Assembly (NCBI GenBank): GCA_963811605.1
Contig: CAWESA010000010.1
Span: forward strand, 1,165,066 to 1,229,065
From: an uncultured delta proteobacterium
GTDB lineage: Bacteria; Desulfobacterota; Binatia; DP-6
DNA length: 64,000 nucleotides
Direction: 5' to 3'
Positions 21,918-25,659 of the stretch are shown here, one piece after another (position 1 is the stretch's first letter; every line of letters begins with the position of its first letter). The translations under genes were made by a program, and so were the position numbers. The notes under the pieces are model-generated. The model was given only the letters and a program-made list of their open reading frames with translations. It was not told the DNA's origin and searched no databases.

Positions 21918-22775
21918 ATGCGACGTCCACGCCGGCCTCCGGCCCCACGAGTCGTCCCGGCGCTGGCGGTTGCCTGTGCGTGCGTCCTGCTGACCGCCGA
22001 ACGACCCGCCGCGGCTGCGTCGCTCCGCTTCCTGCGCGACGACACGGAGGTGGCGCGGCTCGACGCCGACACCCTCCGGCGCGACTGCGCCACGGAGACG
22101 ATCACCGTCGACGACCCCTACTACGAGCGCCGCGTACGCTACATCGCCTGCCCGCTGCGCGAGGTCCTGCGACTCGGGCTCGGCGAGGACGCGTCGGCGC
22201 TGGCCGGGCGCGACGTGCTCTTCCGCGCCTCCGACGGCTACGTGAAGCCCGCGGGCGGCGCGCGGGTGGCGGAGGACGGCGCCTACCTGGCCTTCGCCGA
22301 CGCCGACCGTCCTTCCGGCTTCGCGCCGCTCGGGCGCAAGGCGGTCGACCCCGGACCGTTCTATCTCGTGTGGACGAAACCGGCGCAGCGCGACCCCAAC
22401 GTCTACCCGTGGCCCTATCAGCTCGCCGCCATCGAGGTCACGGATCTGGCCCGCCGCTATCCCCACATCGTGCCGCGCGCGGTCGCGCACGGGTCGCTCG
22501 CGTGGGCCGGCTTCGACCTCTTCCGGGCCGAGTGCATCGCCTGCCACTCCATCAACGGCGAGGGCGGCACCGTCGGTCCCGATCTGAACATCCCGCAGAG
22601 CGTCGTCGAGTACCGGCCGGTCGAGCAGCTGAAGCGCTACATCCGCAATCCGGCGACGTTTCGCTACGGCAACATGCCCTCGCACGAGCACCTGACGGCG
22701 CGAGATCTCGACGCGCTCATCGCCTACTTCTCGGTCATGAAGACCCAGAAGCACGACCCGCGGGCGACGCCGTGA
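21918..22775 (+). CDS. secreted c-type cytochrome domain protein (unknown N-domain + C-terminal CxxCH)
   Basis: ATG 42 bp from the divergent mprF start. Signal peptide MRRPRRPPAPRVVPALAVACACVLLTA and heme motif CIACHSINGEGGTVGP...NMPSHEHL near the C-terminus. The real gene is only the last 286 codons of track ORF 19497..22775. Confidence 0.65.
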   Translation: MRRPRRPPAPRVVPALAVACACVLLTAERPAAAASLRFLRDDTEVARLDADTLRRDCATETITVDDPYYERRVRYIACPLREVLRLGLGEDASALAGRDVLFRASDGYVKPAGGARVAEDGAYLAFADADRPSGFAPLGRKAVDPGPFYLVWTKPAQRDPNVYPWPYQLAAIEVTDLARRYPHIVPRAVAHGSLAWAGFDLFRAECIACHSINGEGGTVGPDLNIPQSVVEYRPVEQLKRYIRNPATFRYGNMPSHEHLTARDLDALIAYFSVMKTQKHDPRATP

Positions 22776-23878
22776 CGCCTGCCGTGCAGGGGGCGCTGCT
22801 CGCGCTCGACGTCCGCCGCCTCGACACCGTGCACGGCCGCTTCCGCGCCCATCGCTTCCACAATCTGACCACGGGGCAGCCGTCGCTCGCCATCGCGATC
22901 GGGCGGCTCGGGGGACGCGCCCCGGTGCTGGCTCGCATCCACTCCTCGTGCGTCACCAGCGAGGTCTACGGGGCCTGCGACTGCGACTGCGCCGAGCAGC
23001 TCGATGCCGCGCTCGCCGCCATCGCCCGCGCCGGTCGTGGCGTGCTCTTCTACCTGACCCAGGAAGGGCGCGGAGCGGGCTTCGCCGCCAAGGCGCGCGA
23101 CCGCATGCTGGTGCAGGCCAGCCGGCATCGGCTCACCACCTTCGACGCCTATCAGCGGCTCGGGCTCGGGCACGATCAACGCCGCTACGACGAGGTTGCC
23201 GTCGCGTGCCGGCTGCTCGGCATCGCCGCGCCGCTTCGCGTGCTCACCAACAATCCCGAGAAGCTGGACGCGCTGCGGATAGCCGGCGTCGCCGTCGCGG
23301 GCCACCTTCCCGTGGCCGTCGGTGCCTCACCCTTCAGCGCCCACTACCTCACCGCCAAGTCGCGCTCGGGGCACCTCCTGGCGCCCGGACGCAGCACGCT
23401 GGCGGTCCTTCCCGAGCGCGTCGCGCGGCTACGGCCGCGCCGGGTGCGGGGGGCTCCCCGCTTCGTCGAGCTGGCCTCCTACCTGCTCCCGCTCCGGACA
23501 CCGGCGCCCGCCTGGTTCCGCCTCCATCTCTACCTCGACGCCGTCACGCGCGAGGAGCGCGTGGTGCTGACGCACGGCATGGGACGCCGCCTCCGCCGCC
23601 CGCCGCTCGTGCACGTGCAGCAAGACGTGCTGCTGGAGCGCTTCCCGCTCCGTCGCCCCCACCGGGCGCGATCGTGGCCACGCGCACGCGCCGCCATCGT
23701 CCGGCACGGCGCGGGATGCGTCCTCTTCCTGCCCGACGGCGAGACCCTCGAACCGGTCGCCGGCCGGCTGCTGGCGCAGCACCTTCCCGGGCGCCGCGCG
23801 GCGTGGGCGGGCGTGGCGGGCGATGCGATGGTCCCGGCGCTCACGCGCGCCGGGATACGGTTCGAGCCCTCGGCATGA
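22772..23878 (+). CDS. GTP cyclohydrolase II paralog with degenerate C-terminal duplicate half-domain
   Basis: GTG overlapping the upstream stop (GTGA). RibA zinc motif RIHSSCVTSEVYGACDCDCAEQL; GRGAGF...LTNNPEKL...SPFSAHYLTAKSRSGHLL match the GCH II core. Residues ~205-368 repeat the N-half pattern without the Cys ligands. Confidence 0.75.
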   Translation: MTPAVQGALLALDVRRLDTVHGRFRAHRFHNLTTGQPSLAIAIGRLGGRAPVLARIHSSCVTSEVYGACDCDCAEQLDAALAAIARAGRGVLFYLTQEGRGAGFAAKARDRMLVQASRHRLTTFDAYQRLGLGHDQRRYDEVAVACRLLGIAAPLRVLTNNPEKLDALRIAGVAVAGHLPVAVGASPFSAHYLTAKSRSGHLLAPGRSTLAVLPERVARLRPRRVRGAPRFVELASYLLPLRTPAPAWFRLHLYLDAVTREERVVLTHGMGRRLRRPPLVHVQQDVLLERFPLRRPHRARSWPRARAAIVRHGAGCVLFLPDGETLEPVAGRLLAQHLPGRRAAWAGVAGDAMVPALTRAGIRFEPSA

Positions 23879-25659
23879 CCCCGGCCGACTGGCGCGAGGG
23901 GCATCGCAGCCTCGCCCTGCGCGTCGCCGCGCTTCCTGCGCTCGCCGCGCGCGCCGCCGCCGAGGTCCTCGACCCTCCGGACCTCCCCGCGTCCGTCGGG
24001 CGCCTGGTCACCACGGGCATCGGCAGCTCCGAGTCGCACGCCCGCGTGCTCGCCGCGCTCGTCGCCGAGCACACGTCCCGGCCCGCACGCTTCGCGCCGG
24101 CCAGCGCCCTGCTCGCGTCCGCCGCGACGCGCACCGCCGACACGCTGGTGGTGTTCTCGCAAGGACTGGCGCCGAACGCGCAGCTCGTCCTCGCCCACGC
24201 GCAGCGCTGGCGTCACGTGATCCTGGCGACCGCGGTCACCGACGCCGCACGCCTCGCACCGCTGCGCGCCCGCGGCGTGCTCCCGGTGCGGTTCGCCGGC
24301 GAGGACGAGTACGAGACGCTGGTGCGCGTCACGGGACCGATCACCGGCCTGCTGTGCGCGCTGCGACTCGCGCGTGCGCTCGGCGTCGCCATCGATGTCC
24401 CCGCCACGCTCGAGGTCGCCCTGGCGCAGGCGTCTGCCGCCACCGCCGGGGTGACGCCGGCCCTGCTCGCGGCGCCGCTCGCGCTGATCGCGTCGGGAAC
24501 CTACGGGGAGCTCCTGACCAACCTGCGTTTCAAGGTGCTCGAGGGGATGCTGCGCCCGCTGCCGCCGGTGTGGGACGTGCTCACGCTCGCCCACGGCCCG
24601 TTCCAGCAGGCGGCCACCGGGGCGGCCACGTTCCTCGCGCTCACCCGTCCGGACGCCCCGGACGACGAGCCCCTCCTCCAGCGCTTCGAGGCCATGCTCG
24701 ATCCGCCCCGCCAGGCGCTGGTCCGGCTGCGCGCGACGCTGCCGTCGCCCTTCGCGTTGCTGGAGCACGAGATGCAGCTCAACGCCCTGCTCCTGGGCGA
24801 GGTCGAGGCGCGTGGCGTCGATCAGGTGCGCTGGCCCGGGCGCGGCGCCGACGCGCCGCTGTACCAGCTCGCCGCACCGCCGATCGAGCGCCGGCTGGAC
24901 GACTGCACGTGGCGCGACATCGAGGGGCTGGTGACGCGCGGGTGTCGCACGGCCGTCCTGCCGCTCGGCTCCACCGAGCAGCATGGCCCGCACCTGCCGC
25001 TCGGCACCGACACCCGCATCGGCGACGCGCTCGCCGAGCGCCTGTGCGCGGCCGTCGGCGACGCGATCGCCTGCCCCGCCCTGCCCGTCGGCTGCGCCGG
25101 CGAGCATCTCGCGTTTCCGGGCACCCTGCACCTCGAGCCGTCCACCCTCGCGGGCGTCCTCCGCGACACCATTCGCGCGCTCGGGCGGCACGGCATCACG
25201 CGCGTCTTCGTGTTCTCCGCCCATGGCGGCAACGTCGCGCCGCTGCGCGCGATGCTGCCCGGGCTGCAGGCGGACTGCGCCCCGGTGGCGGTGGCGGCAT
25301 TCCTCGAGCTCGACGGCCTGATGGCCGCGCTGCAGGCCGTCGGCGCGGCCGCGGGCGTTCCCGCGGCGGAGGCCGGACACCACGCGGGCGAGGTGGAGAC
25401 GTCGATCGTGCTCGCGCTCGACGCGACGCGCGTGCGGTCGGGCGCGCTGGCGCCGGGCCTGGTGATCGACACCGACGACCCGCAGTCGCTGTTCTACCCC
25501 GACCTGCGCGCCAACGCGGCGGAGGGCGTGGTGGGCGACCCGCGACGCGCCGAGACGGCGCGCGGGCTGCGCTACCTGCGCGTCTGGGTCGAGCTGCTGG
25601 CCGCGGCGTATCGCGGCGAGAAGAACAGCATCCAGACCACCGGCACCCAGAACGCGTAG
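23875..25659 (+). CDS. fusion protein: SIS-like phosphosugar-binding N-domain + creatininase-fold amidohydrolase C-domain
   Basis: ATG overlapping the upstream stop (ATGA). N-half LVTTGIGSSESHARVLAAL...TLVVFSQGLAPNAQLVLAHA is SIS-like. C-half VLPLGSTEQHGPHLPLGTDTRIGDA...VFSAHGGN...HAGEVETS matches the creatininase/ArfB-type metal-amidohydrolase fold. Confidence 0.7.
   Translation: MTPADWREGHRSLALRVAALPALAARAAAEVLDPPDLPASVGRLVTTGIGSSESHARVLAALVAEHTSRPARFAPASALLASAATRTADTLVVFSQGLAPNAQLVLAHAQRWRHVILATAVTDAARLAPLRARGVLPVRFAGEDEYETLVRVTGPITGLLCALRLARALGVAIDVPATLEVALAQASAATAGVTPALLAAPLALIASGTYGELLTNLRFKVLEGMLRPLPPVWDVLTLAHGPFQQAATGAATFLALTRPDAPDDEPLLQRFEAMLDPPRQALVRLRATLPSPFALLEHEMQLNALLLGEVEARGVDQVRWPGRGADAPLYQLAAPPIERRLDDCTWRDIEGLVTRGCRTAVLPLGSTEQHGPHLPLGTDTRIGDALAERLCAAVGDAIACPALPVGCAGEHLAFPGTLHLEPSTLAGVLRDTIRALGRHGITRVFVFSAHGGNVAPLRAMLPGLQADCAPVAVAAFLELDGLMAALQAVGAAAGVPAAEAGHHAGEVETSIVLALDATRVRSGALAPGLVIDTDDPQSLFYPDLRANAAEGVVGDPRRAETARGLRYLRVWVELLAAAYRGEKNSIQTTGTQNA

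Follow-up and report, generated by a model that had tools for sequence, protein, structure and literature searches.

Downstream of its GTP cyclohydrolase II (GCH II) domain, the 368-residue protein encoded at 22772..23878 of the window (the whole 64,000-nucleotide stretch of DNA that was analysed) carries a second domain of the same fold. This tail is a dead, zinc-less duplicate of GCH II, and we think it probable that it has been kept as a non-catalytic partner or scaffold in a module of GCH II, SIS-like and creatininase-family domains. An earlier note on this DNA had taken the tail for a GCH II-like duplicate, and that identification is borne out by profile matches, by intermediates in relatives and by purifying selection on the tail. 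The gene, its parts and its neighbours are as follows.

21918..22775, + strand: upstream gene, 285 aa, translationally coupled; N-terminus resembling a signal peptide; CIACH haem-c motif at 22533
22772..23878, + strand: two-domain GCH II-like gene, 368 aa plus stop; 100% identical to database protein P0001
22772..23380, + strand: catalytic-type GCH II domain, residues 1-203 (Pfam PF00925, phmmer to 2bz0, invariant columns, Foldseek)
23381..23446, + strand: inter-domain linker, residues 204-225, with conserved A211, L-P214-E and P222
23447..23875, + strand: degenerate, zinc-less GCH II-fold pseudo-domain, residues 226-368
23513..23527, + strand: W248-F-R250-L-H252 signature strand, common to all second domains examined; opposite F24-R-A-H27 of the N-domain
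23615..23626, + strand: V282-Q-Q-D285, opposite H57-S-S-C60; first zinc ligand gone (C to D)
23651..23665, + strand: R294-R-P296-H-R298, opposite C69-D-C71-D-C73; second and third zinc ligands gone (C to P, C to R)
23735..23752, + strand: deletion point, residues ~322-327 (hhalign gap, MAFFT, secondary-structure comparison)
23875..25659, + strand: downstream gene, 594 aa, translationally coupled; SIS-like region fused to a creatininase-family amidohydrolase
23875-24870, + strand: divergent SIS-like region, ~330 aa (Pfam SIS E = 0.006; profile against PDB SIS proteins E = 0.005 and 0.025)
24871-25659, + strand: creatininase-family amidohydrolase domain (Pfam PF02633 at 1.4e-58)

The GTG start of the gene overlaps the upstream stop (GTGA), and its own stop overlaps the downstream ATGA start. 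Long open reading frames occur here in all six frames, at 72-78% G+C; a real gene in another frame or on the other strand was considered and rejected, homologues and domain matches being found only in the frame that starts at 22772. The tail has the length originally claimed for it (165 aa, residues 204-368) and begins right after ...SRSGHLL; the interval first given, 23380-23878, is one base off frame, and its in-frame equivalent is 23381-23875. No Pfam family matched the product of the upstream 285-aa gene. Since its matches are weak, we call the region at 23875-24870 “SIS-like” and nothing firmer.

The catalytic-type domain and the fold of the tail

The N-domain resembles RibA in three respects. 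Residues 15-179 form a GCH II core (Pfam PF00925, E = 2.9e-43); the zinc ligands C60, C71 and C73, which correspond to C54, C65 and C67 of E. coli, are present and invariant in the family; and R137, the equivalent of E. coli R128, is likewise kept and invariant. Foldseek matches this domain to 2bz0_B with a TM of 0.95. Its scores fall below the NCBIfam RibA cutoffs (141.5 versus 148 for NF001591; 122.8 versus 205.85 for TIGR00505). Tyr105 of GCH II is needed for the canonical reaction. In the phmmer alignment to 2bz0, Tyr105 of the E. coli enzyme aligns to R111, with M112 alongside; this position is never Tyr in the family, and D110-R111-M112 (23099-23107) is invariant in 40/40 sequences.

The tail had been described as echoing the N-terminal half almost position by position. 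The register of that alignment is right, as BLASTP, hhalign and MAFFT pair FRLHLYLD with FRAHRFHN, PPLVHVQQD with PVLARIHSSC, and LLERFPLRRPHR with TSEVYGACDCDC. However, the wording overstates the single-sequence signal, because BLASTP between the N- and C-halves by itself gives a non-significant E of 0.12 (76 aa aligned, 26% identical). Nor is “half-domain” an accurate term, since the tail comprises roughly three quarters of the GCH II fold. In the profile-profile comparison of the two halves that the earlier note had suggested, the self-similarity is significant (hhalign score 43.2, P = 4e-6), and the controls, 2 reversed and 20 column-shuffled, scored at most 19.7 (P >= 0.03). The tail alone matches PF00925 at E = 1.3e-4 with 22.0 bits, slightly short of the gathering score of 23.3 bits. 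Of 33 family tails taken without their N-domains, 19 match the same model at E <= 0.01 (best 4.3e-9). A search of the tail for an unrelated known domain found none that matched; across the 33 family tails, the only match to another Pfam family was that of one member to UreE_N (E = 0.0098).

Structure prediction gives the same picture. Modelled by itself with AF2 (pLDDT 87.5, pTM 0.84), the tail has the GCH II alpha/beta fold, with a central mixed sheet flanked by helices. In the full-length AF2 model (pLDDT 93.9, pTM 0.91) it is predicted to pack against the catalytic domain, forming a rigid two-domain unit, and the linker region 199-222 has no regular secondary structure yet is modelled at pLDDT 81-94. 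A Foldseek search of the PDB with the full-length model matched single GCH II domains and found no solved tandem GCH II.

A further idea is that of a composite active site, in which invariant tail residues such as Y237, R250 or R290 would act in trans to complete the N-domain site and offset the missing Tyr105, making the protein one catalytic unit with altered chemistry. This would suit the absence of Tyr105 from the N-domain across the clade, the invariant Tyr, Arg and Glu of the tail and the confidently predicted inter-domain packing (pTM 0.91). Nevertheless, the solved GCH II-fold matches that we found lack a second GCH II domain, and we regard a composite site as speculative and quite improbable.

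Decay and conservation of the second domain

The reported replacement of the zinc-ligand cysteines is confirmed, with C60, C71 and C73 standing opposite D285, P296 and R298. In addition, the tail has no equivalent of N-domain residues ~98-140, a segment that in the N-domain carries the nucleotide/phosphate loop EGRGAG as well as the DRM helix and the surroundings of R137. The features of an active enzyme are thereby absent: there are no zinc cysteines, no EGRGxG loop and no equivalent of Tyr105 or Arg128. Having lost both the zinc cysteines and the nucleotide-loop/catalytic-arginine segment, the tail is catalytically dead and incapable of GCH II chemistry.

Relatives of the protein retain earlier stages of this process. 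The three zinc cysteines are missing from every second domain examined. The ~98-140 segment is still present in relatives with less degenerate second domains, which keep VRIHSES, DGRGAGFGA, D(R/M)M and D.RDY; these domains score a little better against N-domains of the clade (45-62 bits) than against the RibA proteins of E. coli, M. tuberculosis and H. pylori (25-47 bits). In a set of 150 representative relatives, the active-domain profile matches the second domain of at least 20, over hmm positions ~24-164, and in the six relatives examined most closely it does so at E = 1e-17 to 1e-20. As far as sequence comparison can show it, the tail is the product of a tandem duplication that copied the catalytic domain inside this clade; the zinc cysteines were lost early and the nucleotide-loop/catalytic-arginine segment later, in the lineage of the window.

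These relatives bear on whether the dead copy could be regulatory, that is, whether it binds nucleotide, intermediate or product and allosterically controls the N-domain. In distant relatives the second domain, though devoid of zinc ligands, retains the DGRGAGFGA phosphate loop and D.RDY, and among the invariant residues of the tail are charged and aromatic ones (R250, E262, R290, W248, W302 and Y237), as there might be in a ligand sensor. There is also a parallel in RibBX, whose X domain, according to a passage in PMC10012899 (citing Brutinel 2013), has no GCH II activity yet regulates RibB. Throughout the window's subfamily, however, the phosphate-loop and catalytic-arginine segment is deleted, which makes it unlikely that the ancestral site still binds a ligand there. 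Overall we consider a regulatory tail rather unlikely.

The tail is under purifying selection and is maintained rather than decaying. Its dN/dS is 0.20-0.37 (0.14-0.26 for the tail core), and that of the N-domain is 0.12-0.22. Among 40 proteins, taken from matches some of which are named as Myxococcota (Pyxidicoccus), Binatia and Eisenbacteria, the tails have a mean pairwise identity of 46% and 13 invariant residues, including Y237, W248, R250, E262, R290 and W302. These values also speak to the suspicion that the tail is a decaying, functionless remnant, or resembles GCH II by chance and is unrelated to it. The non-significant BLASTP of the halves (E = 0.12) and the Pfam score under the gathering threshold (22.0 versus 23.3 bits) could be cited for that suspicion. 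On the other side stand the profile, fold and intermediate evidence, all of it significant, the high model confidence, the low dN/dS and residues that stay invariant across distant lineages; as far as computation allows, they refute it, and we give it almost no credence.

Genome context and comparison with known systems

The arrangement of a cytochrome c-like gene followed by the GCH II/tail gene and a SIS-like plus creatininase gene is syntenic in 7/7 related loci (L003-L009), which were found with an alignment of 10 closer sequences as the query. In at least 26 representative clusters, GCH II, tail and SIS-like domain are joined in one chain, and one of these chains, P0123 (930 aa), includes the creatininase domain as well. 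Every fused form has the order GCH II, tail, SIS-like and then, if present, creatininase. Other arrangements occur as well. In Pyxidicoccus, GCH II/tail is followed by a creatininase gene without the SIS-like part; chains of a 480-560 aa class consist of GCH II, an insert and the tail and do not extend to a SIS-like domain; and next to the 803-aa fused class lies a phosphoribosyltransferase gene, and thus the creatininase linkage is not universal. In none of the loci seen is the gene in a rib operon. Taken together, the matches suggest a small uncharacterised family linked to a sugar-isomerase-like domain and usually also to an amidohydrolase. Our literature search found no description of an architecture of GCH II, SIS and creatininase.

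The first reading of the sequence had seen in the tail a dimerisation or channelling module. In its docking form, the tail would be an adaptor that binds the SIS-like/creatininase protein and passes on a labile GTP-derived intermediate. The constant domain order in every fused form, the translational coupling in the window and the synteny in 7/7 loci are what such an adaptor might produce, and dimerisation or channelling would be consistent with the two-domain model (pTM 0.91) and the gene fusions. Domain order alone does not demonstrate contact, though, and both the tail of Pyxidicoccus, whose creatininase gene has no SIS-like part, and the 480-560 aa class, with no SIS-like domain in its chain, fit poorly with docking. 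We therefore treat it as a possible but doubtful account, and one that is compatible with our preferred explanation rather than exclusive of it.

Among characterised proteins, the nearest parallel is offered by RibBX, whose “X” domain is dead (PDB 6mnz from A. baumannii; also in Shewanella, Aeromonas and Bradyrhizobium). Under the definition in PMC10012899, the likeness is that the tail, too, is a GCH II-like domain without the zinc and ring-opening residues. The partners differ. The X domain accompanies an active DHBP synthase (RibB), whereas here the active partner is GCH II itself, in a tandem self-duplication; the window protein has no RibB domain, and its N-terminal partner is GCH II. Furthermore, RibBX descends from bifunctional RibBA. 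The copy in the window is also more strongly reduced, lacking the equivalent of residues ~98-140, and its context is not a rib operon. Compared with canonical RibA (E. coli, PDB 2bz0/2bz1), the tail is 17% identical and lacks equivalents of the zinc cysteines, EGRGxG, Arg128 and Tyr105. In the RibA homodimer two identical, active chains are paired; here both copies lie in one chain, and only one of them can be active. The UTP cyclohydrolase and URC1-type homologues of GCH II (PDB 7eev, 7ej3) differ in that their extra domain is N-terminal and is no duplicate of GCH II; their sequence match is limited to the N-domain of the window protein (E = 4.5e-5).

Two further comparisons concern the chemistry of the module. 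The N-domain of the clade resembles S. coelicolor SCO6655 in that it keeps the zinc site and lacks the Tyr that SCO6655 also misses, and a creatininase-family gene is adjacent or fused. With Met in place of that Tyr, SCO6655 reportedly stops at FAPy, a finding ascribed to Spoonamore et al. 2006. The parallel with this Met switch is inexact because R111 aligns to Tyr105 and M112 lies beside it; unlike SCO6655, the clade has an Arg aligned to Tyr105 with Met next, and not a simple Tyr-to-Met change. The creatininase domain of the window is not close to ArfB, scoring 21.3 bits against the ArfB model (cutoff 180).

A proposed role for the pseudo-domain

We propose that the tail most likely functions as a non-catalytic partner or scaffold. 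The pseudo-enzyme tail would be the structural partner of the active N-domain, and the two would form a “dimer in one chain” of one live and one dead protomer, rigidly packed by way of the conserved proline-rich linker; RibA is a dimer (review PMC13151069). This two-domain unit would be the first component of a module made up of a Tyr105-less GCH II, a pseudo-GCH II, a SIS-like domain and, usually, a creatininase-family amidohydrolase, and the dead domain would probably also serve as a docking surface for the next enzyme. The pseudo-dimer idea alone leaves the invariance of Y237, W248, R250, E262, R290 and W302 unexplained, and these residues could form a binding site. Similarly, the phosphate-loop motif kept in less degenerate second domains points to ligand binding in the ancestor and not to pure scaffolding.

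For the module as a whole, it is plausible that the N-domain opens GTP and goes no further than AFRPP/FAPy, which is still formylated. Removal of the formyl group would then plausibly fall to the creatininase-family domain, as it does to ArfB and BrbF, and the SIS-like domain may plausibly work on the phosphoribosylamine part. Deformylation of AFRPP by creatininase-family enzymes is described for archaeal ArfB and bacterial BrbF (PMC9478397), and the same paper proposes a “BrbG”-type activity in a bacterial two-step route to DARoPP. A more far-reaching idea, which we offer tentatively and hold to be unlikely, is that the protein catalyses the opening step of a GTP-derived pathway not described before. 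There, a Tyr105-less GCH II with an indispensable twin (for its shape, a composite site or docking) would free a formylated intermediate, and the SIS-like domain (Amadori/isomerase-type) and the creatininase domain would process it, giving either DARoPP, by such a bacterial two-step route with its “BrbG”-type activity, or a different pterin- or flavin-like product.

The tail is recognised neither by Pfam at its gathering score nor by any NCBIfam model at its curated cut-off, and proteins of this family are therefore labelled simply “GTP cyclohydrolase II” or “RibBA”. Such labels are probably misleading, in that the catalytic half has no canonical Tyr and no locus seen places the gene in a rib operon. 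Dead enzyme duplicates are a recurring route to regulators and scaffolds, and the family is a clean case because its relatives retain successive stages of decay, with the zinc site lost first and the nucleotide loop afterwards. With its GCH II, pseudo-GCH II, SIS-like and amidohydrolase domains, the unit is a testable candidate for a bacterial route from GTP that is split and passes through a formamide intermediate.

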